The notes under the pieces were generated by a model, which was not told where the DNA came from, searched no databases, and saw only the letters and a program-made list of their open reading frames with translations. Positions 10-62,724 of a DNA stretch of 64,000 nucleotides are shown here, one piece after another (within the stretch, counting starts at the first letter, position 1; every line of letters begins with the position of its first letter). The stretch covers positions 13,224 through 77,223 of the forward strand of contig JAXMAS010000005.1 in the NCBI GenBank assembly GCA_046350275.1, written 5' to 3'. The translations under genes and the position numbers were made by a program. This stretch comes from Gemmataceae bacterium (GTDB taxonomy: Bacteria; Planctomycetota; Planctomycetia; Gemmatales; Gemmataceae).

Positions 10-699
10 ATGAACGCGATCATCGGCACGCTGATGCTCCTGGGCGTTGCGGCGCGGGCATCGGGGAGTGTCGGCGTCGAACGCGATCGTGATACGCTCG
101 TCAGCCTGATGACGACGCCGCTAACGACGCAGCAAATCCTTTGGGCCAAATGGCTCGGCAGCTTGGCCAGCGTCCGACCACTCTTGTGGTGGCTCGGACC
201 AGTTTGGCTGATCACGATCCTGGCCGGCGGCGTCAACGCTGCGGCGGTCGTGCTGATGGCGATGGCATGGATGGCCCCGGCGGCATTCTTCGCGGCATGG
301 GGTGTGTACTGCTCGGTCACGGCCGCGACGACATTACGGTCGACGACGTGGGGCGTCATGGGCGCGCTCTTTTTCGGCGGCGCTCACTGGATTTGCATCG
401 GCATGTGTGTCTACGCGCCTCTGGCGGCGCTGGCCCATACGGGCGACGAGATGAAGTGGCCGGCGTACATCGAAGCCGGCCTGACGCCGCCGGCCGTGTT
501 TGCCCTGGTCCCGTTCGACGAATTGAATCGCCTCGACATCGGCAATGATGGCTTGTTCCCCGCGTTCATGGTCCTCGGCATGGTTCTGTGGGTGACGGCG
601 GCCGCGATTGTCGGATCGCTAGCCCACGAGCAATTCGCGCGGATGACGCACCGGAACGCCTTCGCCCGATCCGATCTTCGGCCGGAGAAAAAGCCGTGA
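10..699 (+). CDS. C-terminal part of a polytopic membrane protein with an ABC-2-type permease-like domain; the 5' end lies outside the window
   Basis: The ORF is open from the window edge. It has hydrophobic TM segments and the motif ERDRDTLVSLMTTPLTTQQILWAKWLG, which matches the ExExGTLE..L.TP...EI..GK signature of ABC-2 family permeases. It is paralogous to the C-terminal halves of the next three genes. Confidence 0.6.
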   Translation: MNAIIGTLMLLGVAARASGSVGVERDRDTLVSLMTTPLTTQQILWAKWLGSLASVRPLLWWLGPVWLITILAGGVNAAAVVLMAMAWMAPAAFFAAWGVYCSVTAATTLRSTTWGVMGALFFGGAHWICIGMCVYAPLAALAHTGDEMKWPAYIEAGLTPPAVFALVPFDELNRLDIGNDGLFPAFMVLGMVLWVTAAAIVGSLAHEQFARMTHRNAFARSDLRPEKKP

Positions 700-2633: not shown

Positions 2634-2638
2634 CTCCG

Positions 2639-4435
2639 ATGCCCGTCCTGGGGCCATTATTCCGACACGAGCTTGTTCGCTTGGCCCATCGGCAACGGCT
2701 GACGCTGTGGCGCAGCGTGTATGCGCTGTGCCTGGTCGGTATCGCGGCGATCACGTTCGCCGCGGCCACCAACGGCTTCGAGAAGCGATTGACGCCGTTC
2801 CTGACGGCCCGCATTGCCGAAGCGTTGTTCGTCGGGCTGATGCTGCTCCAGTTCGTTCTCGCGGCGGTGCTCATCCCACAATGGACGGCCGACGTGGTGG
2901 CCGGCGAGAAGGAGCGACAGACGCTGCCCTTTCTGCTCGTCTCGGACCTGACCAGCCGCGAAGTTGTCCTCGGCAAGATGGCCGCCCGGCTTGCTCAGGT
3001 ATCGATGTTTCTATTTGCGGGGCTGCCGGTCCTGGCCATGCTTCAGCTTTATGGCGGAGCCGACATCGAATTGATCGTCTGGGTTGTCCTGTCTCTCGTG
3101 GCGACACTCTTGAGCGCGAGTGGGGCCGCGATCCTCGCGTCCGTGGCCGAACGGACGACCCGGCAAGCAACGAAACGGGCGGCTCAGATCTTCGCCGTCT
3201 ACGCCTTTTGGCCGATGGCCGCCGATTGGCTCTGCCGCGCCTGGCCGATGATCGGCTACTTCCCGCGAACGCTCGGCTGGCAGGTCTCGTACACGCTCGA
3301 CGATCTCATCGCGGTCATCAATTGGGGCAACCCGCTGTATGTCGGTCGGGAACTCATCAATCAGCTCCGAGCGGGTGGCACCGTTGCCGCGACGATCGCG
3401 CCAATGGCGGCGCAGTACATTCTGTTCCACATGATTGCAGCCGGGATCTGCACCGGCTGGGCGATCCGGCGGCTCCGGCCGGTCCACGCGGAGCAAGGCG
3501 ATGGACCGCCCGTGCCCAAGGCCAACGTCCCGAAATTGCTCAAACCGCCGGGACGACCAACCGTCGGTGAACGCCCTGTCTTCTGGAAGATGCTGCATTG
3601 CGATGCGCGTCTCAGCCGGACGATCTGGCAGTTCAACCTGATGCGCTTTATCTACGTCGCGAGCTACCTGTTTCAGCCGGCTCTCCTGGTGATGATTGCC
3701 ATACAGGTGGGATCACGCAACGCTCAAGCCGTGACCGATGTGTCGATGATCGTGGTCCGTGGCGTGGTCACCGTTGTCCTGGCCGCTCTCTGCATGCACG
3801 CGGCCGGGTTGGCCGCGGCCTGCATCGGGCGCGAGCGGCAGAAACAAACGCTCGACGAACTCCTCCTGACCGATCTCACTGTCGAGGAAATCCTCGCACA
3901 GAAGTGGATCGCCAGCTTCTGGAGTGGGCGATGGGTGTTGCTCTGGGTGCTGGTTCAATGGGCGATCGGCATTGCAGTCGGGGCGTTGCATCCGATGGCG
4001 GTCGTCGCAGTGACGCTCGCCTGGACCGCATTTGCCGCGAGTGGGACAAGCCTGGGCCTCTACTGGGCGGTCCGAACTCCGACGATGCAGCGGGCGAACG
4101 CCTGGACCGGCCTGTGCGGCTTCGCCTTGGTGGCGGTACCGGTCGTGCTGGCGATGTTCCTCCTGATTTGGACGGACGCGCGTCGCGGGTCGGAGCTGCT
4201 CGCGATGTCGCCGCCCGGCACGCTCGGCTTGGCGGCCATCTCACCCGATAACTGGGCGCAACTCCGTCGCGGCGAATGGTCGTACCTGTTGATGGCCGCC
4301 GCCTGCCTCGCCTGCATCGCGTTCCACGCGATCCTGGCGTGGCGGTTGTGGCGTGCCGCGTGCCGACGGTTTGCAATCGTGACGGGCCGAGCGCCCGAAT
4401 CCTGGCGTGCCGTCGCTCCTGGGGAGGTGTCATGA
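2639..4435 (+). CDS. Fused tandem ABC-2-type permease-like membrane protein, paralog 3
   Basis: An internal ATG gives MPVLGPLFRHELVRLAHRQRLTLWRSVYAL, paralogous to the neighbouring N-termini. Motifs EKERQTLPFLLVSDLTSREVVLGKM and ERQKQTLDELLLTDLTVEEILAQKW are present and the protein is polytopic. The start lies 6 nt after the upstream stop. The ORF track extends to 2246, which is probably not real. Confidence 0.6.
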   Translation: MPVLGPLFRHELVRLAHRQRLTLWRSVYALCLVGIAAITFAAATNGFEKRLTPFLTARIAEALFVGLMLLQFVLAAVLIPQWTADVVAGEKERQTLPFLLVSDLTSREVVLGKMAARLAQVSMFLFAGLPVLAMLQLYGGADIELIVWVVLSLVATLLSASGAAILASVAERTTRQATKRAAQIFAVYAFWPMAADWLCRAWPMIGYFPRTLGWQVSYTLDDLIAVINWGNPLYVGRELINQLRAGGTVAATIAPMAAQYILFHMIAAGICTGWAIRRLRPVHAEQGDGPPVPKANVPKLLKPPGRPTVGERPVFWKMLHCDARLSRTIWQFNLMRFIYVASYLFQPALLVMIAIQVGSRNAQAVTDVSMIVVRGVVTVVLAALCMHAAGLAAACIGRERQKQTLDELLLTDLTVEEILAQKWIASFWSGRWVLLWVLVQWAIGIAVGALHPMAVVAVTLAWTAFAASGTSLGLYWAVRTPTMQRANAWTGLCGFALVAVPVVLAMFLLIWTDARRGSELLAMSPPGTLGLAAISPDNWAQLRRGEWSYLLMAAACLACIAFHAILAWRLWRAACRRFAIVTGRAPESWRAVAPGEVS

Positions 4436-6267
4436 CGCAGATCCCGCCGCGCGTCAAACCGGTTCGCCAATACCGGCCGCTCGTCGGACCGCTGTTCGCG
4501 TACGACCTGGTGGCGAGCACGCGCCGCGGCCAGCACGTCGGGCTCCGCGTCCTCATCGCGACACTGCTTCTGATCGTCCTCTACTGCGTCTACTCCGTCG
4601 AACTGCGGGTGGACCCGCTCGCGAACCCGTTCAAGGCCGGACCTACGATCGCCATCAACGCCATGGCCGGGTTCGCCAACAACTTCGCGATCTGGTGCAT
4701 CGTCGTGCAGATGCTCGCGGTACTGCTGGTCACGCCGATCGTCGTCGCCGACGCCATCGCCCGTGAGAAGGAACGGCGTGCCCTCGACTTCCTTTTCGTC
4801 ACCGATTTGACCGACCGCGAGATCGTCTTCGGTAAGCTCGGATCGCGGCTGACGTACCTCGTCGGTGTATTGCTGACGGGAATGCCGGTCGTCGGGATGA
4901 CGCAGCTCTTTGGCGGTGTCAGCCTGGGGCTTTTCATCGGCGGGTACGTCGTCATCTACTCGACGCTGATCGGCTTGACGAGTCTGAGCATCTGTTGCTC
5001 GGTACTGTCGAAAACCTCGCTTCAGGCGACGACGCGGGCATACGCTGTTGCAGCGGGTTACTTGCTCTTCTCGCCGTGCGTGATCGGCATGATGCGTGGC
5101 GATGAAGGGTTCATCGTCGCTGTGACGGCGTTCGCGTTCGCCAACTTGATGGTCTCCGTCTTCGCCGTCGGCACGAGCCTGACAGAGTTGCGACCGCGGG
5201 CACTGGCTTTGACCTACCACCTGCCGCCCGTGCCACTGACGATGCCGTCCGTCCCGGCGGTCGCCAAGACGGCGGTGAAAACGGCGGCACAACCCATGCG
5301 GGGTTGGGGGGCGATGGAGGACGATGGTGGGCCGCCGTTTGTGCGGCCCGCACCGCCGCTCACGCCGAAATTACCTCGGCACGTCGAGGTCTGGCAACCA
5401 CCACCGATTCCGCCGCCGCCGTTACCCCCAATCGACGAGGAGCGGCCGCTTCTGTGGAAGGAAGTGTGTCTCCATTCGTTCACGCGCGGACGGGTCGGCC
5501 CGGCGACGCCGGCGTTGATGGGCGCGATCGTCGTGGCCGCCGTACTGCTGGGCCTGATGCTGATTGTTGTGCTGACAGATCGGAACGCGGGCCTCCACGA
5601 GATCGCGCAGTTGGGGACCATCGTCGTCAAGGTGGTCACAGTCGCCGTCGGTTCCATCCTCGGCCTCGCCGCAATCCTGCACACGACCAACAGCATCGTC
5701 CGGGAGCGTGAGCGCGATACACTCGACGCCTTATTGACACTGCCATTCGACCGGGTAATGCTCCTGGAGGCGAAGTGGCTCGGTGGACTGTACGATCTGC
5801 GGGCGCTGCCGATGATTCTGGGGCTGGGTTGGCTCTTTGGCCTGGTGACGGGCGGGTTGCACCCGATCGCCCTGTTCTGGTTGATCTGCTGTGTATTGGC
5901 CCCGATTGAGTTCCTCGCGAGCCTGGGTCTGTGGTTATCGGCGGTCAACCGTTCGAGCTTGCGAGCGAATCTGGTCGCGGCCCTGTGCGTGCTGGGTGTC
6001 GGCTTCGGGCCGTGGATCGCGGCCAACTATGTCGAGTTTCTGTACCCGCGCGGGTACGGCCAGAGTGATTGGTCGGACATCGTGTATACGACGCTGATGC
6101 CGCCGGCCGCGTGGCTTCATGCAGCGGTTTCCTGGGAAGACTACGCAAAACTGCCGGCGTACACCGGTGACGTGTTGCTATCCGGGGCGCTCCTGTATGC
6201 GATCGGGGCGTGGCTTTTGTGGCGAATGTCGGTCGCCCGATTGCGATGGGTCGCCGGAAAGCGATGA
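4432..6267 (+). CDS. Fused tandem ABC-2-type permease-like membrane protein, paralog 4
   Basis: An ATG at 4432 overlaps the upstream stop (ATGA) and gives MTQIPPRVKPVRQYRPLVGPLFAYDLV. Motifs EKERRALDFLFVTDLTDREIVFGKL and ERERDTLDALLTLPFDRVMLLEAKWLG are present. A Pro-rich linker (PPPIPPPPLPP) joins the two halves. Confidence 0.6.
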   Translation: MTQIPPRVKPVRQYRPLVGPLFAYDLVASTRRGQHVGLRVLIATLLLIVLYCVYSVELRVDPLANPFKAGPTIAINAMAGFANNFAIWCIVVQMLAVLLVTPIVVADAIAREKERRALDFLFVTDLTDREIVFGKLGSRLTYLVGVLLTGMPVVGMTQLFGGVSLGLFIGGYVVIYSTLIGLTSLSICCSVLSKTSLQATTRAYAVAAGYLLFSPCVIGMMRGDEGFIVAVTAFAFANLMVSVFAVGTSLTELRPRALALTYHLPPVPLTMPSVPAVAKTAVKTAAQPMRGWGAMEDDGGPPFVRPAPPLTPKLPRHVEVWQPPPIPPPPLPPIDEERPLLWKEVCLHSFTRGRVGPATPALMGAIVVAAVLLGLMLIVVLTDRNAGLHEIAQLGTIVVKVVTVAVGSILGLAAILHTTNSIVRERERDTLDALLTLPFDRVMLLEAKWLGGLYDLRALPMILGLGWLFGLVTGGLHPIALFWLICCVLAPIEFLASLGLWLSAVNRSSLRANLVAALCVLGVGFGPWIAANYVEFLYPRGYGQSDWSDIVYTTLMPPAAWLHAAVSWEDYAKLPAYTGDVLLSGALLYAIGAWLLWRMSVARLRWVAGKR

Positions 6268-6619
6268 GCTGTCATCAACCGTCGGCAGGTCGTTCCCGAT
6301 AACCATCGAGGGCGGCCTGTCGTGCGGCACCGTGATCGGCCTCAGCCCAACGAAAACTCTCAGGACAGCGGCTACCCCTGTGCCGGTCGGTCTTCGGGGT
6401 GTCTCAAGGGCCACGATGCAGGAGAATTGCGCCTGGGTTGCTGGCCTAGACATCGAGGAGGGTAGCGCTCGTCGGCTATGCTTCGCGGGCCGAGGCGTCG
6501 TGCCACCGGCACGACTATGCGAGGCGACTCTTTCATCGGCCCGATTGTTGGTTTGGTATTCGGAGCTCAGGACGGAGGCTTGAAAACTCTGAGTGGATTC
6601 AACGCAGCAACACATATTG

Positions 6620-7531
6620 TCATGGTACGCTAATCGCCTCACCTCCGGAACGAGTCGCAAGTGCAGGCAGTACGTTTCTTGTTTCATAAGTTAGGAACCG
6701 TACCGATCCTTCCGCGAATAGCCAGTTGCCGCCATCGGAATGCAAACTCCAATAGTGGAATCGATCACATGGGTTGGTTGCATAGCCAGGACCGAACTCA
6801 AATCTGCCGTTGCACTGACTATCCGCGTAATTAACGCCGACGGCCAGCCAACCGCAATCCGGCCCTCGGGCGAGCGAATTGAGCTGGTTTCGATACCAAC
6901 TCCCTGCCTGTCCGGAGTCGGGCGGAGGCCTCTCGCCGACCATGAGGGTATTGCTAACCCCATCTGTGATCTCGCTGAAGCGAATTCCAAGTCTACCGGG
7001 CCTACCGAGAACGCCATCCCAATCCAGCGCCCCTCCCACGCCTAGGTAAGACGTGACTGCCATTTGAGTGTCGGGGCTGGACATGAATCGGGAGATTGCT
7101 TCCCTTCCATCAGCTGGGCACACAAAAAGCCGAATCGGTGTACTGTTGCCAACATGCGGCGGGTCTAAATCCGCATCGGAGGCGATTCGAAAGGCGTCTA
7201 GGATCTGCCGCCAACGAGCATCTTGTTCAAGGTCCGGGAGTATCAAGGCCATCCAACTCAGCCACACGTCCGCGTCGGGTTCTGGCTTGGTTCCACCGAC
7301 GTATACCCGCCGCGGTGGAAGATTGCCATGACGACCGTGATAGTTGGCGAGTCCAACGCCCAACTGTCGCAGGCTATTCGCGCAGGAGATGCGCATCGAG
7401 TTGGCCCGCGCGGCCTGCACTGCCGGTAACGACAAACTCACTAGAAGGCCAACCACACCGATGGCGACGAGTACTTCGGCAAGGGTGACCGCCGTTCGAT
7501 TCGGGTTGCGGGCGTGTCGTCGCATCGTCAA
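6620..7531 (-). CDS. DUF1559 domain protein with a prepilin-type N-terminal cleavage/methylation domain (Planctomycetes-typical)
   Basis: The N-terminus RTAVTLAEVLVAIGVVGLLVSLSLPAVQAARANSMRISCANSLRQLGVGLANYH is the canonical DUF1559 / type IV pilin-like start. Local GC is about 50%, well below the flanks. Confidence 0.8.
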   Translation of the reverse strand: MTMRRHARNPNRTAVTLAEVLVAIGVVGLLVSLSLPAVQAARANSMRISCANSLRQLGVGLANYHGRHGNLPPRRVYVGGTKPEPDADVWLSWMALILPDLEQDARWRQILDAFRIASDADLDPPHVGNSTPIRLFVCPADGREAISRFMSSPDTQMAVTSYLGVGGALDWDGVLGRPGRLGIRFSEITDGVSNTLMVGERPPPDSGQAGSWYRNQLNSLARGPDCGWLAVGVNYADSQCNGRFEFGPGYATNPCDRFHYWSLHSDGGNWLFAEGSVRFLTYETRNVLPALATRSGGEAISVP

Positions 7532-7827
7532 TCCTTGATAGTCACAGGGACTTCGACTTTCGATTGACCCGAGTCACTCGTCGCCATTAGGACAACATGA
7601 CCGTATCGGTTGCGACCCTCAACTCGAGCAGACTTCTTGCATTCAATTGTCACAACGTGACGCTCAGCATCTGTAATTAGGCCATTGTCGATGATCACTC
7701 CAAAATCCTCTGGGGCCGAGGCTACTGTCAAGCCAAACACTTTCGACGGCACAGCACGGCAAATACACCTGGCGCTGTATATTGGCCCATCGGATGAGTT
7801 TCGCGGCAGGACGACAGCGGCGGGCAT
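7528..7827 (-). CDS. Hypothetical protein, translationally coupled to the downstream DUF1559 gene
   Basis: A 99-aa ORF overlaps the DUF1559 start by 4 nt. It lies inside the low-GC island and has no recognisable motif. Confidence 0.4.
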   Translation of the reverse strand: MPAAVVLPRNSSDGPIYSARCICRAVPSKVFGLTVASAPEDFGVIIDNGLITDAERHVVTIECKKSARVEGRNRYGHVVLMATSDSGQSKVEVPVTIKD

Positions 7828-7839
7828 TACTTCATAACC

Positions 7840-8187
7840 TTATACCGCGCGACCCCGTACCGGAATGGCAATCGGTCTTGCATCATCACCCTTCACATAT
7901 ACCAATATGTTTCCTTGCACCGGCCCCTGAGCACTCGGGGAGAAGGCTATTTCCACGCCCGCTACGTTGTGACCATCCGTCGGAGATTCGTCGGCCCGAC
8001 CTTTCACTAGTGTTACGGACAAGCTCTCCGGATTATCGCTGACTACGCGCTCGACTTCACGGGGCAGCGGTCGGGTATCAAACAGGTGAACTGTTTGACG
8101 CGCACAACTTCCAACTGGGACGTCCCAAAATGCTGCCCCGGCGCATACCGCGGGCAACACAAAGTAGGCAAGAATCCGAGTAGCCAT
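7840..8187 (-). CDS. Hypothetical secreted protein
   Basis: The internal start MATRILAYFVLPAVCAGAAFW resembles a signal peptide. The ORF track extends to 8244. It sits in the low-GC island. Confidence 0.4.
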   Translation of the reverse strand: MATRILAYFVLPAVCAGAAFWDVPVGSCARQTVHLFDTRPLPREVERVVSDNPESLSVTLVKGRADESPTDGHNVAGVEIAFSPSAQGPVQGNILVYVKGDDARPIAIPVRGRAV

Positions 8188-8209
8188 ATACCGCTCCACG
8201 ATGGTGAAG

Positions 8210-9262
8210 CTAAGGAGTTTGTTTGCGGCGACGGATGAGCGCAAAACTGATGCCGACTAACAAGACGGCAACTGAAACGGGTGTCAACCAACTTGCAAAC
8301 CCGTTCCCGCGTTCAGTGACAGGCGTGGGTTCCGCCGGTGGAATGCTCGTTAGGAGCGTGGTTGTAACTTGCTTGCTGTTGTCCGGCTCCAGTTTGCCAC
8401 CCGAGCCGACGCGGAACTCGCGTCCCTGTATGCCGTCAATTACCCGAGTACCTTCGGGGAAGGCCAGTGAGAAAGTTGAGTCGGGCACTCCCAAGTTTAC
8501 CTTGATGTCGCGAAAAGATGTTCCATACGTACTGGGTGTTTCATGCCCGTCACGTCCGACAACGATAAGCCGAACCTCGGACGGAAAGTACAAGCCAGGC
8601 GATACCTCTGTGAACCCGCGTACTTCTGCCCCGCCACGAGACTGGCCGTGAGAACTATCCGTAACTAAGCGCTTTCGTACTAAATAGTTGACGGACGGAT
8701 CGAACCACAACTCATTGCGGATTTCGCCGGTCTGGATGTCTAAATAGGTCAACTGCCGGCCGTCGACCGTTACCTCAGCCGCGCTCCGAAGTTTGTGCGG
8801 ACCCGCTAACAGTTCATCTAGCGAATAGACCTGGCCGTTCATGCCAAAGTGCGTGAATAAGGCGGTCAGCCAGACATCGCTATACCCGAAAAAGCCCTTG
8901 CTACGCGATATGGTACCTGTCAGGGATTGTCGCCCGCCGCTCCAGACTGCGGGCGACAATGAGCGCACGTCACCATTTCGACAGGCGATGTCAACCCCAA
9001 AGCCGAGGTAGTTCTCACGTATGCGGACCAACTCTCCCTTTCTCCAATAGTCAATGGAGACCGGGGCTGGTGATGGCGCGGCGGACTTCGCTCGGCCACC
9101 GACTTCGGTAGCCCGGCAATAGAAATCTACCATCGACTGAACCGTCGCCGAGTGGGCTTGCCGCACTAAGGTTGCCAGTTCGTCCTCCCCTCCCCTCACC
9201 GTGGGCACTAGGAAAGTGGGTACTACAGCAGCAGCCATTGTCAGTCGTATGGCAAGCGACAT
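8210..9262 (-). CDS. Hypothetical secreted protein with a C-terminal membrane anchor
   Basis: The N-terminus has a signal-like stretch (MSLAIRLTMAAAVVPTFLVPTVRG). The C-terminus ends in a hydrophobic helix plus a basic tail (WLTPVSVAVLLVGISFALIRRRKQTP), similar to a sorting-signal anchor. It is in the low-GC region. Confidence 0.45.
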   Translation of the reverse strand: MSLAIRLTMAAAVVPTFLVPTVRGGEDELATLVRQAHSATVQSMVDFYCRATEVGGRAKSAAPSPAPVSIDYWRKGELVRIRENYLGFGVDIACRNGDVRSLSPAVWSGGRQSLTGTISRSKGFFGYSDVWLTALFTHFGMNGQVYSLDELLAGPHKLRSAAEVTVDGRQLTYLDIQTGEIRNELWFDPSVNYLVRKRLVTDSSHGQSRGGAEVRGFTEVSPGLYFPSEVRLIVVGRDGHETPSTYGTSFRDIKVNLGVPDSTFSLAFPEGTRVIDGIQGREFRVGSGGKLEPDNSKQVTTTLLTSIPPAEPTPVTERGNGFASWLTPVSVAVLLVGISFALIRRRKQTP

Positions 9263-9363
9263 TGTCGTCCTCGACTAATGGTCAAGCCAGAAAAAACTCA
9301 TGTGATCAAGCGGTGCCTAGACTTCAAAATGGCGGGCTTGAATCACGTTCACAGTCGGCCTGC

Positions 9364-9633
9364 CTATGGGCAAGTGGCAAACGTAGCTCCGCACGGCCCG
9401 CCAGTAGTGCAGGTACCTTGGCAAACAAAATTGGAGCCGTTCGTGCAGCCGCCAGCGCCATTGCCACAGTAGTTGAAGCCACCCGCTCCACTGATCGAAC
9501 AACTGCATAGCTGCTGAGTTTGGAGATTCACTCCAGCAAACGTGCCACCTTGGGAGCACAAGAAGCTCCCGCTACAGGCTCCGAAGACGCCGAAGGCGTA
9601 TCCGCTTACCATCATTGCAGTGCTCAAGGACAA
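9364..9633 (-). CDS. Small Cys/Gly-rich putative secreted peptide (89 aa; alternative ATG starts at residues 7 and 8)
   Basis: The N-terminus is hydrophobic (MSLSTAMMVSGYAFGVFGA). About 12 Cys and 20 Gly follow in GxC/CxxG patterns (CSGSFLC, CSCSISGAGG, CGNGAGGC, CQGTCTTGGPCG). The start is TTG with no clear SD, so coding status is uncertain. Confidence 0.3.
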   Translation of the reverse strand: MSLSTAMMVSGYAFGVFGACSGSFLCSQGGTFAGVNLQTQQLCSCSISGAGGFNYCGNGAGGCTNGSNFVCQGTCTTGGPCGATFATCP

Positions 9634-9696
9634 CGCTGCGAGTAGTCTGGGTCGGGCCTTCTGTGCATGTCCCCTTAGATCAATTCCCAGGATCCT

Positions 9697-9730
9697 GTAA
9701 CGCGAGCGGCGATTATCCCACTCGCGTTAC
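9697..9730. promoter_or_regulatory. Perfect 10-bp inverted repeat GTAACGCGAG-N14-CTCGCGTTAC in a divergent, AT-rich intergenic region, followed by a T9 run
   Basis: The palindrome and poly-T were read directly. The site lies between the minus-strand Cys-rich ORF and the plus-strand exbB-like gene. The T-run is about 22 nt from the stem, too far for a classic intrinsic terminator. Confidence 0.3.
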
Positions 9731-9802
9731 CAATGTCAAGTAAATTACCTAGTTTTTTTTTCTAGGTCACTGGCACCCGGAATACCTGGCGACAGGAACT
9801 AT

Positions 9803-9832
9803 TTGCCTGCTCCAGCGTCAAAAGTGTACATT
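9803..9832 (+). promoter_or_regulatory. Candidate sigma70-like promoter (TTGCCT, 18-nt spacer, TACATT) about 80 nt upstream of the exbB-like gene
   Basis: Hexamers were read by eye in the AT-rich intergenic region. Planctomycete promoter consensus is poorly known, so this is weak. Confidence 0.25.
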
Positions 9833-9910
9833 GTCTGATAGGAAGTCCGCGGCCCTCCCGGCCCGATCGGGGCGCGGTGTCATACCGTTCATATCCGGGG
9901 ACAGCATCTG

Positions 9911-10774
9911 ATGCCGCCGAATCTTTCCCGTGCGCGGGTTTTCGCCTTCGTTGTTGTCTCTCTTCTGACGCTTTTCGCCACCGGATGGATTGCTCCCGCG
10001 ACGGCTCTTGCCGGTCCGGATGACCCAGCCGCCGCGCCGGCGGGCGACGGCCCCGCACCGATTGTGGAAGACAGCCTGCCGATGCACATCATCAAGTCGG
10101 CTGGTTGGGTCTTTGGCCCACTGCTGCTCGGCTTGTCGATGGCGCTCGTAGCCCTTTGCGTTCTGCTTTTCCTGGACCTCCGGATGCAAAACGCCATTCC
10201 ACCGGGCTTTGTCGAAGAGTTCACCGACACGGTGAACAAGCGAAAGTTCAAGGAAGCATTCGATATGGCTCGGGCTGACCCGTCGTTCCTGGGCAAAGTG
10301 CTCACGGGCGGCATGAGCCGGCTGCAATATGGCATCGAGGATGCTCGCGATGCCGCGTTCAACATGGTCGAGTCGATCAAGTCGTCCAAGGAACAGATCA
10401 ACAACTACACCGCCGTTATTTGTTCGCTCGGCCCGCTCATCGGCCTCGTCGGCACCGTGTTCGGCATGATCCTGTCGTTCAAGGAGTTGGCGAAGGGCGG
10501 CAAGATCGATGCAGCCCGTCTTGCGGATGGCATCTCGCATGCGCTCGTCATCACGATGCTGGGGATCGGTTTGGCCGTTCCCGGCTTGTTCTTCAATGCG
10601 TTTTTCCGCAATCGCATTACCCGTATCTCGATGGATACGGCCAACATCGCCGATGACCTTCTGACGCAGATGTACCACGGCTCGAAGAAGCCCGCTCCGC
10701 CGCCCAGTTCCGTGCCGTCCCCGGAACAGCGGCCGACACCCGTGCCGCCGCCCCAGGCGATGCCGACGAAATAG
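9911..10774 (+). CDS. exbB: MotA/TolQ/ExbB family proton-channel protein
   Basis: A signal/TM N-terminus is followed by three TM helices with the conserved ExbB/TolQ segment YTAVICSLGPLIGLVGTVFGMILSFKELA ... ISHALVITMLGIGLAVPGLFFNAFF. Confidence 0.8.
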   Translation: MPPNLSRARVFAFVVVSLLTLFATGWIAPATALAGPDDPAAAPAGDGPAPIVEDSLPMHIIKSAGWVFGPLLLGLSMALVALCVLLFLDLRMQNAIPPGFVEEFTDTVNKRKFKEAFDMARADPSFLGKVLTGGMSRLQYGIEDARDAAFNMVESIKSSKEQINNYTAVICSLGPLIGLVGTVFGMILSFKELAKGGKIDAARLADGISHALVITMLGIGLAVPGLFFNAFFRNRITRISMDTANIADDLLTQMYHGSKKPAPPPSSVPSPEQRPTPVPPPQAMPTK

Positions 10775-30985: not shown

Positions 30986-31059
30986 GCAGGGTTAGCTCAG
31001 ATGGTAAGAGCATCGGCCCACTAAGCCGACAGTCCCAGGTTCGACTCCTGGACCCAACA
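30986..31059 (+). tRNA. tRNA-like sequence (canonical D-arm AGCTCAGATGGTAAGAGC and T-arm CCAGGTTCGACTCCTGG) with a defective acceptor stem and a noncanonical anticodon loop (CCACUAA); possibly a tRNA pseudogene
   Basis: In the hand-folded cloverleaf the D and T arms are perfect, but acceptor pairs 2-71 and 3-70 mismatch (C.A, A.A) and position 33 is C. Confidence 0.4.
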
Positions 31060-31336
31060 CCGGATGAGTCGCAGACTCACCCGACTCAACGCTTAACCAG
31101 CGTTACCTTGACCGCCTGACGGACGCGGTCGGTTTCATCGGCGGGCAACCGGCTTTGGCTCGTTGCCCACCGTCCGCGCACACCAGCGGGTGCCGCGCAG
31201 GCGGTTCGCCAGCCCGCGAATCCCGGGGCGGTCGCCCACCGTCTCGGCACTTGCACGGCTCGCGATCCGCTCCCGCGGCATCCCTCGTGCGTCGACGGGC
31301 CGGCGAGGCCGCCGCGTCCGCCGGGCCTTTTGGCAA

Positions 31337-52589: not shown

Positions 52590-52877
52590 TCAAACCGCAC
52601 CCGGACCGCGAGCGCTGTCGATGACCCGCGCGATTTCGACGCCGGCGTCCGTAGTACGGTAGAACACCAAGTAACCCCTCAAGGCGTTAACCCGTAACCC
52701 CGTGCCGTACAACTCGTCCGTCGCCCCTTGCAGAAGCGGTTGGTCCGCGATGACCTGAAACCGCGTGAGAAACTCGTCGAAAAGGGCGTTGGCGCGCGCC
52801 TCCGAGAATCGGGCGACGTAGTTGTACAACTCGCGCAGGTCGGCCTGCGCGTCGTTCGCGATCCGATATCGGCTCAT
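52590..52877 (-). CDS. parE: Type II toxin-antitoxin system toxin, ParE/RelE family
   Basis: It is 95 aa and reads MSRYRIANDAQADLRELYNYVARFSEARANALFDEFLTRFQVIADQPLLQG...LRGYLVFYRTTDAGVEIARVID, a ParE-like fold. It overlaps the antitoxin gene by 4 nt. Confidence 0.7.
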   Translation of the reverse strand: MSRYRIANDAQADLRELYNYVARFSEARANALFDEFLTRFQVIADQPLLQGATDELYGTGLRVNALRGYLVFYRTTDAGVEIARVIDSARGPGAV

Positions 52878-53182
52878 GGCGCTTGCGATCGACCGAGGCG
52901 GGCCTGCCCGTCGCGCTTGATTTGCTCGAAGAACGCCCGCAGCGAGGCGTCGTCGAATTCGGTGTAGTCGCCGCGGTCGAGGGCGGCGACCCCCTCGGCG
53001 ACTAGCCGCCGAACCTCGGCCGGGTCCAGTTCGGCGCGCCCGAGAGCCCGCCGTTGGTCCGCCTCCCGGTCGTTCAAAGCATCAAAGGCGTTGCTCACAG
53101 CCGCGTCGGCCGACGAGAAGCGGCCACTGTTGACGGCATCCTCGATTCGGCGGATCGTTTCGGGGCTGAGGGTAATCGGCAT
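52874..53182 (-). CDS. parD: Type II antitoxin, ParD/ribbon-helix-helix family
   Basis: The start MPITLSPETIRRIEDAVNSGRFSSADAAVSNAFDAL fits an RHH antitoxin. It is the upstream partner of the parE-like gene. The ORF track extends to 53218. Confidence 0.65.
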   Translation of the reverse strand: MPITLSPETIRRIEDAVNSGRFSSADAAVSNAFDALNDREADQRRALGRAELDPAEVRRLVAEGVAALDRGDYTEFDDASLRAFFEQIKRDGQARLGRSQAP

Positions 53183-53251
53183 CGCGATCCTCCGTTGCGT
53201 CGTTTCTTGAGTGTCCAAGACCCGGCCCGGATTGTCAACCTCCGTCGCGCC

Positions 53252-54238
53252 TCACCGCACCCAGCCATGCAGGTACACGTCGTCGCCGACATGCTCGCTC
53301 TCCCATCGGACGAGTGGAAGCGCGTCGCGGATCATGGCCGGACCGACGCCGCCGACCGGCGATAAGGCATCTCGGCCGCCGAGGACGCGCGGCGCGACGA
53401 AGACGTGCAGCTCGTCCACCGCCCGCGCCGCGAAGAACGACGCGAAGACCTCGGCCCCGCCTTCGACTAGCACGTTCGTCATCCGCCGCCGGCCCAACTC
53501 CGTGAGCAACTCGGGCACCGGCATCGACACGACTTCGACGGGGGCCACGTCCCGCGTCCGCAGCAGTTGGCAGCCGGCCGGCAGCGTCCCAGACCGGCTT
53601 AGTACGATGCGCGTTGCGACCCGCGGCCCTGGTGGGCGCGCGGTCAGGAGCGGGTCGTCGGCACGCACCGTGCCGGCCCCGACCACGATTGCATCCATCC
53701 GGCCGCGCAGCTCGTGAACCCGCGCCCGTGACGCCGGGCCGCTGATCCACTTCGAGTCGCCGGTCATCGTCGCGATCTTACCGTCGAGCGTCATCGCCCA
53801 CTTCGCGTGGACGTACGGCCGGCCGTCGCGCAACAGCGTCAGGTACGGCGCGTTTAGCCGCACTGCCTCGGCCTCACAGACGCCAACATCGACCGCGATG
53901 CCGACTTCGCGCAGTTTGGCGATGCCGCCACCAGCGACACGCGGGAACGGATCGGCCATCGCCGCGACGACCCGCGCGATGCCGGCCCGGATCACTGCGT
54001 CGGCACACGGTGGCGTCTTCCCGAAGTGGCAGCACGGCTCCAGCGTGACGTAGAGAGTCGCCCCGCGGGCCGCGTCGCCGGCCGCTTCGAGGGCAAAAAC
54101 CTCGGCGTGCGGCCCACCGAATGTCCGGTGCCAGCCCTCGCCGACGATGGTCCTCTCGTGGACGATGACGGCACCGACAAGCGGGTTCGGCTCCACGGCC
54201 CCGCGGCCGTGCTCGGCCAATTCCAGGGCGCGGCGCAT
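53252..54238 (-). CDS. ribD: Bifunctional riboflavin biosynthesis protein RibD (pyrimidine deaminase plus reductase)
   Basis: The deaminase motif is MRRALELAEHGRGAVEPNPLVGAVIV...HAEVFAL...TLEPCCHFGKTPPCADAV. The reductase domain reads AKWAMTLDGKIA...VVGAGTVRADDP. The ORF is open upstream to 54385, so the true start may be further upstream. Confidence 0.8.
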   Translation of the reverse strand: MRRALELAEHGRGAVEPNPLVGAVIVHERTIVGEGWHRTFGGPHAEVFALEAAGDAARGATLYVTLEPCCHFGKTPPCADAVIRAGIARVVAAMADPFPRVAGGGIAKLREVGIAVDVGVCEAEAVRLNAPYLTLLRDGRPYVHAKWAMTLDGKIATMTGDSKWISGPASRARVHELRGRMDAIVVGAGTVRADDPLLTARPPGPRVATRIVLSRSGTLPAGCQLLRTRDVAPVEVVSMPVPELLTELGRRRMTNVLVEGGAEVFASFFAARAVDELHVFVAPRVLGGRDALSPVGGVGPAMIRDALPLVRWESEHVGDDVYLHGWVR

Positions 54239-54386
54239 CCACGCGGTATCGTCTTCGGTGACGGGCACAGCGGAATCCCGGAAAAAGTCGCGAACCGGGC
54301 GCAAGGGTGGCGGCTCTATCCAGTGTACACAACGATGAAATACTCGGGCCGGCCCCTGAATCGCCCAGGGGGCCGGCCCGTTCAAC

Positions 54387-57971: not shown

Positions 57972-60464
57972 ATGCAACGAAAATTGGCTATCGTCCTCGC
58001 TTGCCTTGTCCTGATGGGAGCCGCTTCCCCAATCGCCCCCGCACAGGAGAACGCGCCGAAAGTCGCCTCACCCAGCAAGGAAGGCGTCGAGTTCTTCGAG
58101 ACGCACATCCGCCCCGTCCTGGCCGACCGCTGTTACGAGTGCCACTCGACCCAATCCAAGAAGCTCAAGGGCGGCTTACTCCTCGACTCGCAGCCCGGCG
58201 TCGCCAAGGGCGGCGACAACGGCCCGGTCGTCGTGCCCGGCGACGTCGAGAAGAGCCGGCTGATCGAGGCGATCCGCTGGGCCGATCCCACATTCGCAAT
58301 GCCGCCCAAGGAGAAGCTCACGCCGCAACAGATCGCGCGGTTCGAGCAATGGGTGAAGATGGGCGCGCCGGACCCGCGGACGACGACGGCGAAGCCGCAG
58401 GCGGCGGGGAAGGCCGTGGACGTGACCGCCGGTCGCAGCTGGTGGGCGTTTCAGCCCGTCCGCGAACTGCCCGCGCCGGCCGTCGCGCAGCCGGCGTGGC
58501 CGAAGAAGAAGATCGACACCTTCGTCTTGCAGCAGCTCGACGCCGCGCACCTGTCGCCGTCGCCCCGCGCCGACCCGCGGACGCTGATCCAACGCGCCTA
58601 CCTCGACCTGACCGGCCTGCGGCCGACCTACGAACAGGCCGAGGCGTTCGCCGCCGACCCGTCCGACGCGGCCTACGAGCGCGTCGTCGAGACGCTGCTC
58701 GCGTCGAAGGCGTACGGGCAGCGGTGGGGCCGGTACTGGCTCGACGTCGCCCGCGGCGGCGAGGACAACCCGACTTCGGAAGCCACCAACCCGCCGTACC
58801 CGTATGCGTGGCGGTACCGCGATTGGGTCATCGACGCGATCAACCGCGACGTGCCGTACGACCGCTTCGTCGCGCTGCAACTCGCGGCCGACCTGATGCC
58901 GGACGTGCCGCGGGGCGACCTCGTCGCCACCGGCTTCCTCGGGGCCGGCCCGATCTACCACAAGGACGGCCGGCTGTCGAAAGAGGTCATCGAAAACCTC
59001 TACCACGACGACTGGGACGAGCGGGTTGACGTCGTCTCCCGCGGCGTCCTCGGGCTGACCGTGGCGTGCGCGCGGTGCCACGACCACAAGTTCGACCCGA
59101 TCACCACCCGCGACTACTACGCCCTCGCCGGCGTCTTCGCGTCCACCGTCGCCGCCGTCCGCCCGACGGCCAAGGTGGATGCCGCGGCCGAAGCGACATT
59201 CATGGCCGCGGCCCAACGCCTCTTCTACCTCAGCTACGCCGCGAACCTGATGCGGACCGAGCCGGGCAGCAAGCCGAAGGACGCCCGAAAGATGGTCGAG
59301 CGGTTCGTCGCGGAACTGGACAAGATCGAGGAGGAGATCGCCCCGCTCCGCACCAGCCACCCGGACCTGCACGCCTACCTCGCCAAGCTCGACAAGCGGC
59401 CCGCGCCGTACGAGCCGAAGCCCGGCGACAAGCCGGCCGCCCCGGCCGAGCGCCAGGGCCGACGCCGCGGCGGGTCGGTCGAGCCGTTCTTCCATTCCGT
59501 GTACGACGCCGGCCTGTGGGTGGACGGGTCCGACCCCGACTTCACCATGATCGACGTCCGGCCGGGGCAGCCCCACGACCTGAACGTCCTGCCCGGCGGC
59601 AACGTGGCCAAGCCGCGCGAGTCGGCCCCGCGCGCGTTCCCGGCCGTGCTGGCCAAGGGCGATGCCGACTTCCGCCGCGGGTCCGGCCGACTGGAACTGG
59701 CCGAGAAGCTGTTCACCGACGCCGCCCCGCTGGCCGCTCGGGTGATGGTCAACCGCGTCTGGGCGTGGCACTTCGGCCGGCCGATCGTCGGCACCCCGAG
59801 CGACTTCGGCGCACAGGGCGAGAAGCCGACGCACCCGCAACTGCTCGACGACCTGGCCGCCCGGTTCGTCGCCAACGGCTGGTCGCTCAAGTGGCTGCAC
59901 CGCGAGATCATGCTCTCCGCGGCGTACCAGCAGGCCAGCCGGCCGCGGGCCGACGCGGCGAAGCTCGACCCGGCCAACCGGCTGCTCTGGCGGATGGCCC
60001 CGCGGCGGCTCGACATTGAGGCGTACCGCGACTGCCTGCTGCAAGCGGCCGGCAACCTCGACCCGACCGCCGGCGGGCCGTCCGCGGACATCGACGGGCC
60101 GGGCAACGTCCGCCGCACCGTCTACGCCCGCATCGGCCGCGGCCGGGTGAGCAACCTGCTCCAGCTTTACGGCTTCCCCGAGGCGACCATGCACAGCCCG
60201 GGCCGCGAGGCCGTCACCACGCCGATCCAACAACTGTTCGTCATGAACAGCCCGTTCCTCCGCGAGCAGGCGGCGGCGCTGGCCGCGGGCGTCGCCAAGG
60301 AGGCCGACACAACCGCCCAGGTGCGGGCGATGGTGCGCAAGGCGCTGGCCCGCGACCCCACCGACCGCGAACTGGCCCTGGCCGCCGAGTACATCGCCGC
60401 CGCGTCGCTCAAGGACTACGCCCACGCCCTGCTCAGCACCAACGAGGTCATCTTTTGGCCATGA
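57972..60464 (+). CDS. PSCyt (planctomycete cytochrome c, CxxCH) / DUF1549 / DUF1553 domain protein
   Basis: It has a signal peptide and the heme-binding motif DRCYECHS. The large protein has the characteristic PSCyt/DUF1549 ... DUF1553 arrangement, ending ...[11 protein letters not shown]. It is paired with the downstream DUF1501 gene as is typical. Confidence 0.8.
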   Translation: MQRKLAIVLACLVLMGAASPIAPAQENAPKVASPSKEGVEFFETHIRPVLADRCYECHSTQSKKLKGGLLLDSQPGVAKGGDNGPVVVPGDVEKSRLIEAIRWADPTFAMPPKEKLTPQQIARFEQWVKMGAPDPRTTTAKPQAAGKAVDVTAGRSWWAFQPVRELPAPAVAQPAWPKKKIDTFVLQQLDAAHLSPSPRADPRTLIQRAYLDLTGLRPTYEQAEAFAADPSDAAYERVVETLLASKAYGQRWGRYWLDVARGGEDNPTSEATNPPYPYAWRYRDWVIDAINRDVPYDRFVALQLAADLMPDVPRGDLVATGFLGAGPIYHKDGRLSKEVIENLYHDDWDERVDVVSRGVLGLTVACARCHDHKFDPITTRDYYALAGVFASTVAAVRPTAKVDAAAEATFMAAAQRLFYLSYAANLMRTEPGSKPKDARKMVERFVAELDKIEEEIAPLRTSHPDLHAYLAKLDKRPAPYEPKPGDKPAAPAERQGRRRGGSVEPFFHSVYDAGLWVDGSDPDFTMIDVRPGQPHDLNVLPGGNVAKPRESAPRAFPAVLAKGDADFRRGSGRLELAEKLFTDAAPLAARVMVNRVWAWHFGRPIVGTPSDFGAQGEKPTHPQLLDDLAARFVANGWSLKWLHREIMLSAAYQQASRPRADAAKLDPANRLLWRMAPRRLDIEAYRDCLLQAAGNLDPTAGGPSADIDGPGNVRRTVYARIGRGRVSNLLQLYGFPEATMHSPGREAVTTPIQQLFVMNSPFLREQAAALAAGVAKEADTTAQVRAMVRKALARDPTDRELALAAEYIAAASLKDYAHALLSTNEVIFWP

Positions 60465-61831
60465 ACCCGCCGATGACGCGCCGCGTGATGCTGCAATCCC
60501 TCAGCACCGGCCTCGGGTCCGTCGCGCTCCTCGGCGCGCTGGCCGACGAGCAGGCCCGCGCCGCGGACGCCAAGCCGGCCGTGCTGCCGCACTTCGCGCC
60601 GAAGGCGAAGGCGAACGTCGTCCTGTTCATGCCCGGCGGCCCGTCGCAGATGGACCTGTTCGACCCGAAGCCGGCCCTCGAAACGCACGCCGGCCAGCGG
60701 CCCGAGTCGGTCAACCTCCGCACCGAGCGGACCACCGGCGGCCTGTACCCGTCGCCGTTCAAGTTCGCGAAGCACGGCCAGTCGGGCCTGGAAGTCAGCG
60801 AGTTGCTGCCGAAGCTCGCGGCCATCGCCGACGACCTGTGCGTCGTGCGGTCGATGTACACGTTCAACCCGACGCACACCCCCGCCCGCAGCCTGTTCCA
60901 CACCGGCAACATCGCGGCCACCCGGCCGGGGATGGGGTCATGGATCTCCTACGGCCTCGGGTCGGAGAACCGCAACCTGCCGGGCTTCGTCGCGTTGGCC
61001 CCCGGCGGCGGCGGGGCCGGCATGCGCAGCGGCTTCCTGCCGGCCAAGCACCAGGCGACGGCCCTCGACGACACGATCACCGACCCGGAGAGGATGATCC
61101 GCCACCTGCGGAACCAGCAGCTCGACCCCGCGGCCCAGCGGCGGCAGCTCGACCTCGTGCAAGAGTTGAACCGCGACCACCAGCGGGCGGTCGGCGAGGA
61201 CGAGTTCTTGGAGGCCCGCATCCAGGCGATGGAGACGGCGTACCGGATGCAGACGGAGGCGACGGACGCGTTCGACCTGCGGGGCGAGCCGGCGGCGGTG
61301 CGGGAGGAGTACGGCAAGACGCCGTTCGCGAACGGCTGCCTGTTGGCCCGCCGGCTGGTCGAGCGCGGCGTCCGCACCGTCCACGTCCACTACGGCCCCG
61401 GCCAACCGTGGGACGACCACAGCAAGATCAACAAGCACCTCCGCGGCCGGTGCCCGGACATGGACCGGGCGTCGGCCGCGCTGATCACCGACCTGAAGCG
61501 CCGCGGCCTGTTGGCGACGACGGCGGTGGTCTGGGGCGGCGAGTTTGGCCGGACGCCGGTGTCCGAGAGCGGCGACGGCCGGGACCACAACCCGTACGGG
61601 TTCACGATGTTCATGGCCGGCGGCGGGATTTTGAGGCGGCGTCTGCTACGGCGGCACCGACGAGTTCGGCTTCCGGGCGGTGGACCGGCGGGTGTCGATC
61701 CACGACCTGCACGCGACGCTGTTGCACGGTATCCTCGGCATCGACCACGAGAAGCGACGTACCGCTACGCCGGCCGCGACTTCCGGCTGACCGACGTGTA
61801 CGGCGAGGTCGTCCGCGACCTGTTGGCGTGA
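60461..61831 (+). CDS. DUF1501 (sulfatase-like) protein with a twin-arginine signal; carries an internal +1/-1 frameshift pair (about 61627-61757)
   Basis: It reads [26 protein letters not shown] (Tat-like). The DUF1501 core is conserved up to ...[16 protein letters not shown]. The next roughly 40 residues in the annotated frame are Arg-rich and low-complexity. The conserved DUF1501 segment ([40 protein letters not shown]) is readable in the +1 frame. The original frame resumes at [24 protein letters not shown]. Confidence 0.7.
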
Positions 61832-62063
61832 CGCCAGGCAGACCTTCCGCGTCCGCTGGCGTCCCTTCTTGCGTTCCGGTTGAGCAGGGCCGTTCTCAAG
61901 TCGAAGGCGAATGGTCGGAGGATGTCCTGTAGGGTGGTACGAGCGCACGGCGAGTACCACCACGACCATCCAGCGCTCCGACAGGTCTGGTGGCACTCGC
62001 TGCGCTCGTACCACCCTACGGGTGCCCGCCTTGGACTTGAGGGCTTGGCCACTACGAGTTGAC

Positions 62064-62135
62064 GGGATTCAGGTGTTACCGGCGGCATCCCCGGCTCTTA
62101 CCCGGGTGGTGAGGGTTCGACTCCCTCGGGTCCCA
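62064..62135 (+). tRNA. Putative tRNA-Lys(CUU), atypical (A at position 8, G.U-rich D-stem)
   Basis: The acceptor stem GGGATTC/GGGTCCC has two G.U pairs. The anticodon stem CCCGG/CCGGG is perfect with loop CUCUUAC (CUU, U33 present). The T-arm is GAGGGTTCGACTCCCTC. The D-arm is weak. Confidence 0.4.
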
Positions 62136-62141
62136 CTGCAC

Positions 62142-62212
62142 GCAGTCGTGATGTAACGGTAGCCTCCGTGTATGCCACGCACGATGCGCGGGTTCGACTC
62201 CCGCCGACTGCA
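62142..62212 (+). tRNA. tRNA-Gly(GCC)
   Basis: The acceptor stem GCAGTCG/CGACTGC is perfect. The anticodon stem CGTGT/GCACG surrounds loop AUGCCAC (GCC). The T-arm is GCGGGTTCGACTCCCGC. Confidence 0.65.
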
Positions 62213-62217
62213 CTCAC

Positions 62218-62290
62218 GTCCCGGTGGAGTAGCGGCTAACTCGTCACCCTGTCACGGTGAAGATCGCGGGTTCAAATCCCGTCCGGGACG
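62218..62290 (+). tRNA. tRNA-Asp(GUC)
   Basis: The acceptor stem GTCCCGG/CCGGGAC is perfect. The D-arm is GAGT-AGCGGCTAA-ACTC. The anticodon stem TCACC/GGTGA surrounds loop CUGUCAC (GUC). The T-arm is GCGGGTTCAAATCCCGT. Confidence 0.75.
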
Positions 62291-62724
62291 CTCCAATCGA
62301 AGCCGGCCTCTCCCGAACGCCGGTTGCGGCTAGTGGCCCATACCGGCAGGGTATCGGGCCGCTGTTACGAGGATGGCCGTCACCAATGCTGCGGCGACGG
62401 CCACGCACACGCAGCCGGCAACGACCGCTGGCTGCCCCGTCAAGGTCTTCCGTCGCGTTAGCATGAACTGCCGCCGAACGACGCTGACACCGCCCAGCCA
62501 GACGGCGACGAACCCAAGGCACAGGCCGGTCAGAAACAGCGGTTCGGCGCACATTGCAGTAGCCTTGTCTTATTCGGCGAAGACGGCCCAGCGAGTCGGT
62601 GGCACGTGCGCGACGGCATGCGTCTGGAATGCCCATATCGGCAGGCCGATCTCCCGGCATTACTTCCGCACCGGGCCGGCGGCCGCTAAACTGTCGGCAC
62701 TCGCCCGCGCACGGAGGGTCGGCC

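Follow-up and report, generated by a model that had tools for sequence, protein, structure and literature searches.

Three clustered indels place a conserved segment of a planctomycete DUF1501 gene out of frame without breaking its open reading frame

The DUF1501 locus and its partner gene

The window, that is, the whole stretch of 64,000 nucleotides analysed in this study, contains a DUF1501 gene that directly follows a partner gene with PSCyt1, PSCyt2 and PSD1 (DUF1549/DUF1553) domains. The features discussed below are listed in Table 1. The DUF1501 family is highly multiplied in Planctomycetes, and its pairing with PSCyt1/PSCyt2/PSD1 genes is a classical planctomycete module (Kamneva et al. 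2012, PMC3542564). This genomic pairing was present at 57975-61831. The three Pfam domains of the partner gene were all full length (PSD1 262 bits, PSCyt2 247 bits, PSCyt1 62 bits). Its mechanical ORF extends from 57744, the coding signal in the codon-usage Viterbi analysis begins at 57988, and the true start likely lies near 57975 (MQRKLAIVLACL...). The mechanical ORF of the DUF1501 gene covers 60455-61831. The true start is the ATG at 60461, which overlaps the stop codon of the upstream gene (ATGA), and the encoded N-terminus is Tat-like and intact.

The 456-aa product exactly matched a database entry, GenBank MFO0807931.1, 'MAG: DUF1501 domain-containing protein [Gemmataceae bacterium]' (P0001, from a 425 kb contig). 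Since this is an entry from a metagenome-assembled genome (MAG), the window derives from such an assembly.

Table 1. Positions of the features described in this study (window coordinates).
Feature	Position	Strand	Evidence or remarks
Three large ORFs	588-2633, 2246-4435, 4276-6267	+	Each in a different frame; ABC-2-type transporter membrane domains
DUF1559 (SBP_bac_10) gene	6620-7531	-	Full length
350-aa ORF	8210-9262	-	No Pfam match
tRNA-like gene	30986-31061	+	ARAGORN tRNA-Ser(ACT); Rfam tRNA 54 bits
ribD	53252-54385	-	Followed in the same frame by a 125-aa ORF without Pfam match (52874-54385 overall)
Partner gene, PSCyt1 + PSCyt2 + PSD1 (DUF1549/DUF1553)	57975-60464	+	Pfam, coding signal
DUF1501 gene	60461-61831	+	456 aa; Pfam PF07394, 384 bits, profile positions 1-390 of 390
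Junction 1, GGGATTTTGA	61625-61634	+	Net +1 vs homolog GGN TTY AAR
Patch, ancestral coding signal in the +1 frame	61635-61754	+	Viterbi, codon positions, family columns
Middle indel, +3	61728-61733	+	CAC GGT ATC CTC vs homolog CAC GTS CTC
Junction 2, -1	61755/61756	+	GAGAAGC followed by GACGTACC vs homolog GAGAAGCTSACNTACC (E-K-L-T-Y)
Outer repeat, 15-nt arms	61895-61909 / 62027-62041
Inner repeat, 22-nt arms	61926-61947 / 62001-62022		95% complementary

A conserved segment lies in the +1 frame

The initial annotation of this DNA had proposed that about 40 conserved residues of the DUF1501 product are scrambled by two compensating frameshifts while the ORF stays unbroken. The two translations on which this was based, one in the ORF frame and one in the +1 frame, were reproduced exactly by three-frame translation. 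The +1 and -1 indels lie about 125 nt apart and displace about 41 codons, after which the original frame resumes and the last 24 residues are restored exactly. The peptide read in the annotated frame is Arg-rich, with 14 Arg and 6 Pro in 42 residues (codons over 61631-61756). The +1 frame reads G-F-stop, the TGA standing just upstream as had been described, and continues with 40 residues of family text. When these residues were swapped into the protein, the Pfam score rose from 384.2 to 456.4 bits (+72), and both the annotated and the frame-repaired proteins exceeded the gathering cutoff of PF07394 (27 bits). The match of the alternative frame to the DUF1501 family is far beyond chance. The repaired C-terminal 96 aa showed 94.8% identity to the homolog on locus L003.

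The displaced segment was also the strongest frame anomaly of the whole window. A codon-usage Viterbi analysis of the 64 kb gave a single A-to-B-to-A excursion, at 61633-61752, and the same interval ranked top in an alternative-frame likelihood scan with 27 nats. The runners-up in the scan (22, 15 and 12.5 nats) lay at the 5' ends of ORFs with over-called starts, and the rest of the top 15 were much weaker. Neither analysis revealed another frame anomaly in the 64 kb, and the Pfam domains were full length in about 43 ORFs. In the genes of this window, 62% of the 41-codon windows in that alternative frame are free of stop codons, so that the DUF1501 ORF staying open means little.

We then compared the segment, hereafter the patch, with the family. 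Across 61 intact homologs, 18 columns of the patch were invariant; all of them are lost in the annotated frame and kept only in the +1 frame. The conserved block K-GG..G.TD..GF.A....S.HD..AT....G..HE.L is likewise absent from the annotated product and present in the +1 frame. The patch sits in the most conserved block of the DUF1501 family.

Three indels at the DNA level

The indels were mapped by DNA alignment to eight homologous loci together with coordinate checks. The alignment confirmed both members of the proposed pair, the +1 at junction 1 and the -1 at junction 2, and added a third indel of +3 between them that the initial annotation had missed. The window reads GGGATTTTGAGG at 61625-61636, GGTATC at 61728-61733 and AAGCGACG at 61752-61759. 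The deposited strings GGGATTTTGAGG, CACGGTATCCTC and GAGAAGCGACG stand against the canonical GG(N)TTYAARGGC, CACGTSCTC and GAGAAGCTSAC.

At junction 1, the inserted base is ambiguous. Dropping the last G or A yields G-I-L, while G-F-stop or G-I-stop results when a G, the A or a T is dropped. The TGA of the +1 frame (hereafter the old frame), at 61632-61634, occupies a conserved Lys codon, a point that had been overlooked. Of the 98 close homologs matched by the motif, 93 have GGG-FK-GG, and the TGA differs from AAR at 2-3 bases. The +3 indel adds one residue within the conserved old-frame helix (vs LLH-VL-GIDH). The spacing H-xx-G[ILVM]DH was 2 residues in 57 of the 57 regex-matched sequences of a second search, and the +3 was not found in any homolog whose spacing was measured (these 57 plus all displayed close homologs). 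At junction 2, the window has GAGAAGC followed by GACG where the homologs have GAGAAGCTSAC, and the base was lost outside any homopolymer. Homopolymer runs, to which the initial annotation had drawn attention, were touched only by the first site, as a short G3 and T4; neither the +3 nor the -1 is a classic homopolymer error. Inspection by eye gave no convincing sign that the three indel sites have a motif in common, for example one for methylation. With a net change of +3, the product has one residue more than its relatives. The arrangement has the geometry of a compensatory frameshift pair (pCFM): two indels that are not multiples of 3 restore the frame, and what lies between them shows its homology in the other frame.

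Codon-position differences and selection

The differences between the patch and L003 numbered 4, 1 and 19 on old-frame codon positions 1, 2 and 3. They amounted to 17 synonymous and 3 non-synonymous codons, and all three of the latter were at family-variable sites. Five other relatives showed the same old-frame third-position pattern in the patch. No trace of evolution under the newly read frame was found in the codon-position differences to these six relatives. The patch has therefore been shaped by purifying selection on the old frame throughout practically all of its history. From the concentration of the differences on old-frame third positions it follows that the shift arose extremely recently or does not exist in the organism.

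Outside the patch, about 190 invariant columns are common to the DUF1501 gene and 61 homologs. The DUF1501 gene carries 3 private changes at otherwise invariant columns, all conservative. The other sequences have 0-2 (2 in five of them), so that its count is the highest of the 62. Relaxed selection elsewhere in the gene was considered on this basis and set aside, the signal of 3 private changes against 0-2 being too weak to use. No decay was seen in the DUF1501 gene outside the indels: the domain is full length, the N-terminus is Tat-like, and the ATGA overlap joins it to an intact partner.

Homologs and indel clusters in other assemblies

A full-length protein search for an independent copy gave a next best match of 76-80% identity. 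Same-species fragments were sought with the repaired C-terminal half; the best matches had 89-91% identity and no protein exceeded 91%. Two exact-DNA scans of metagenome contigs gave 0 matches. In a genome-contig scan, the best identity among the matches listed was 73%, and the organism's own genome may have been missed by it. All full-length close homologs carried the conserved 49-residue segment in a single frame. Orthologs with the Arg-rich segment in the same frame, an arrangement that had been considered beforehand, were not what these comparisons revealed. Arg-rich text at this place occurred only in two proteins (P0055 and P0080), which have independent indels with different boundaries and come from noisy long-read assemblies. 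Their high ranking was partly biased, because alternative-frame words such as HRRVR are common to them and the query.

Indel clusters were found in three DUF1501 homologs on Flye-style ENA contigs (ERZ26871208, ERZ25039595). On L001 (ERZ26871208, contig_24777_np1212; 5081-5372), a +2 stands directly after the same GCCGGCGGC and a -1 follows 45 nt on. The genes flanking this cluster are intact, which indicates that an isolated indel cluster in otherwise clean sequence does occur. L002 (4961-5248) carries five or more single-base insertions within 100 nt, one of which, AAG[A]GGCGG, falls in the same tract. In L083 (3900-5100), several shifts are crowded into about 100 nt in another part of the DUF1501 gene. 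The PSCyt partner gene is split in both L002 and L083. The DUF1501 homolog on L084, a MEGAHIT (short-read) contig, is intact. The suffix _np1212, carried by L001 and L002 and not by the contig studied here, is presumably a NextPolish tag; a literature search gave no confirmation of this. Together with the two other assemblies, whose ranking is partly biased, the GCCGGCGGCGG (GGC-rich) tract gives a hint of an indel hot spot. Many DUF1501 proteins of 199 aa and 244 aa in the protein collection may stem from such broken gene calls.

Predicted structure of the C-terminal region

AlphaFold2 models were made of the window protein and of an intact homolog, P0002, with mean pLDDT of 61 and 67. Shallow alignments limited the models to moderate quality. 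In the P0002 model (mean pLDDT 67), the residues equivalent to the patch form two short strands and a helix (413-423) with pLDDT of 70-83, and the TYRY and DFRL strands come after this helix. In the model of the window protein, the region from 393 to the end (458) has pLDDT of 23-39, and its sole secondary structure is a short helix at 451-457. The P0002 model showed only a weak resemblance to LtaS and sulfatases, members of the alkaline-phosphatase superfamily (E ~1e-4, TM only ~0.3). A sequence search for a relative of the DUF1501 protein with a solved structure found none. A protein with the patch scrambled would very probably be inactive.

Origin of the indels

Three independent random errors within 130 nt without a local cause are very unlikely. 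Both main readings of the locus need one local cause, either a consensus failure or a complex mutational event, and we judged consensus failure to be the likelier. Beside the observations themselves (the indels, their positions, the intact old-frame signal and no decay elsewhere), we infer a technical cause: on balance, and with limited confidence, we favour a local assembly or consensus artefact in the MAG, with the three indels not in the organism's DNA. A local cluster of consensus or assembly errors, in a MAG probably built from long reads, would have introduced the indels. In that case the true sequence would be ...(V)LGIDHEK-L-TYRY..., and its product an ordinary DUF1501 enzyme exported by the Tat pathway, with a sulfatase/alkaline-phosphatase fold. 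With errors totalling +3 and a stop-free alternative frame, a gene caller would then output an intact-looking 456-aa protein with 41 scrambled residues. The artefact is favoured because the source is a MAG and no second copy was found in the searched collections, because the patch shows no evolutionary age, and because the gene and operon are otherwise undamaged. Within 130 nt there are three indels and a single garbled codon, with no further unexpected substitution. Such an indel-dominated spectrum is typical of long-read consensus error and also argues for an artefact; spontaneous bacterial mutation yields roughly ten substitutions per indel. Similar indel clusters in L001, L002 and L083, together with the intact MEGAHIT homolog on L084, point the same way. 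So does the rarity of genuine pairs: in a survey of compensatory frameshifts, 6 of 624 candidate pairs passed quality filtering and the genuine ones lay in poorly conserved regions (PMC8935012), whereas the patch here covers 18 invariant columns. Like the error clusters of long-read metagenomes (Nanopore or PacBio CLR), the cluster is indel-dominated, spans at most 130 nt and keeps the coding signal in another frame. Unlike them, it sums to +3 without a stop and so remains unflagged, and the surrounding 64 kb is clean. Against an artefact, the absence of other frame anomalies from the 64 kb shows that the assembly as a whole is not noisy. The +3 and the -1 also lie outside homopolymers, and TGA in place of AAR is no simple miscall. 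A frameshift-correction tool was considered as the source of the -1 and rejected: with so strong an old-frame match, an aligner would have put the correction where the true error lay. In the rival explanation the sequence is genuine, and one DUF1501 paralog was hit by a very recent, localised complex mutational event and is a nascent pseudogene that keeps the look of an ORF by chance. We regard this as possible, though less probable than the artefact. An error-prone repair-synthesis patch or several tightly linked indels are candidate mechanisms, and the product would be inactive or misfolded. The window is otherwise free of frame errors, the indels are mostly outside homopolymers, and the old-frame TGA and the unique +3 look like sequence change. 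The DUF1501 family is so highly multiplied that loss of one copy should cost little (PMC3542564), and in 62% of cases one expects no stop in the alternative frame. The models agree that the patch is structurally important, being ordered in P0002 and of low confidence (pLDDT 23-39) in the window protein, although the mean confidences of 61 and 67 are only moderate. The 3 private changes, top of the 62 sequences, would also fit a lesion, but they are barely above the 2 seen in five others. Against a genuine lesion stand the lack of decay elsewhere in the gene or in the patch and the absence of the sequence from any second sequence in the searches made. Moreover, three indels with essentially no substitutions are unlike neutral drift, so that a single rare complex event must be assumed. 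Young pseudogenes in expanded paralog families such as DUF1501/PSCyt (PMC3542564) are alike in that one copy has frame-disrupting indels and no other damage. Typical pseudogenes have a broken ORF and scattered substitutions, unlike the intact ORF and the lesions all within 130 nt found here.

Two further explanations also take the deposited sequence as real. If it were real and tolerated, a compensatory frameshift pair would have become fixed, with an Arg/Pro-rich loop replacing the strand-strand-helix, the TGA bypassed, and the function kept or changed. Compensatory pairs play a part in protein evolution and are enriched towards the ends of genes (PMC8935012), and here the last 24 residues are restored exactly with ORF and operon intact. 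However, 18 invariant positions of the family are lost along with many near-invariant ones, the peptide that takes their place is predicted to be disordered, the codon positions show no evolution in the new frame, and the arrangement was seen in no relative examined. Known genuine pairs lie in weakly conserved regions (PMC8935012). With accepted pCFMs, the locus shares a +1/-1 pair about 125 nt apart near the 3' end of a gene and a frame restored downstream. Accepted pCFMs are, unlike it, found in weakly conserved genes or regions and are common to related species, whereas here the most conserved block is affected in a single MAG. We consider a tolerated pair very unlikely. Programmed frameshifting, with a +1 shift near 61634 and a -1 shift near 61755, or transcriptional slippage would restore the conserved protein from the DNA as it stands. 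It is the least probable of the explanations, being close to negligible. In its favour, UUG AGG C at 61631-61637 loosely resembles hungry-codon +1 sites, of which Ty1 CUU AGG C is an example, and a T4 run is present. However, neither junction has an X XXY YYZ heptamer or an option for P-site tRNA re-pairing; AUU UUG AGG C and GAG AAG CGA CGU allow no re-pairing in the required direction. Two efficient shifts of opposite sign would be needed, and transcriptional slippage would call for a run much longer than T4. For the 100 nt that follow the first site, the MFE was -37.4 kcal/mol against a shuffle mean of -42.1 (z = +1.53), and 185 of 200 shuffles folded at least as well. The arrangement was present in none of about 240 homologs examined, every intact one being single-frame. 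Programmed +1 systems (prfB CUU UGA C; Ty1 CUU AGG C) are alike in three respects: the conserved frame contains a UGA, an AGG codon of a rare type stands at the junction, and the upstream stretch is rich in G. They differ in that here the ribosome arrives in the other frame, without a re-pairing site, conservation or stimulatory structure, and would need a second, opposite shift. Of the three causes put forward in the initial annotation, we thus reject programmed frameshifting, for lack of a slippery site, structure or conservation, and the evidence leans to a sequencing or assembly error over a degenerate paralog.

Returning to the favoured artefact, MFO0807931.1 passes as an intact DUF1501 enzyme but probably carries 41 wrong residues. 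Indel clusters with no net frame change evade frameshift and pseudogene flags and enter protein databases as seemingly novel low-complexity inserts. If the sequence is real, it would be a snapshot of a paralog at its inactivation in an expanded planctomycete family, of modest interest and within known biology. An artefact or a just-born pseudogene-like lesion is neither new biology nor a new mechanism. A tolerated pair, if true, would be a natural frameshift rescue that makes a radically new segment inside a conserved enzyme core.

Other observations in the window

The codon-usage model classed about 3.7 kb (6209-9962) as non-coding despite the genes within it (Table 1). Recent acquisition or weak expression of genes may lie behind the atypical codon usage. 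The ribD gene ends at an apparent in-frame stop at 53252. A frameshift or read-through was considered for this stop and rejected, as it is most simply the end of ribD with a separate small gene adjoining.

The tRNA-like gene at 30986-31061 is 76 nt long and lacks a long variable arm. It has C, not U, at position 33 (CCACUAA loop) and two acceptor-stem mismatches (C2-A, A3-A). It is possibly a degenerate tRNA, a pseudo-tRNA or another local sequence problem.

The three consecutive large ORFs within 588-6267 show apparent overlaps of 100-390 nt. Their appearance is that of tandem paralogs whose starts are over-called, not of one frameshifted gene.

Nested inverted repeats lie at 61895-62041, between the DUF1501 stop codon and a tRNA-Lys/Gly/Asp cluster (62064-62291). 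Together they would fold into a long composite hairpin (about 147 nt), which may be a terminator or else a small repeat element.
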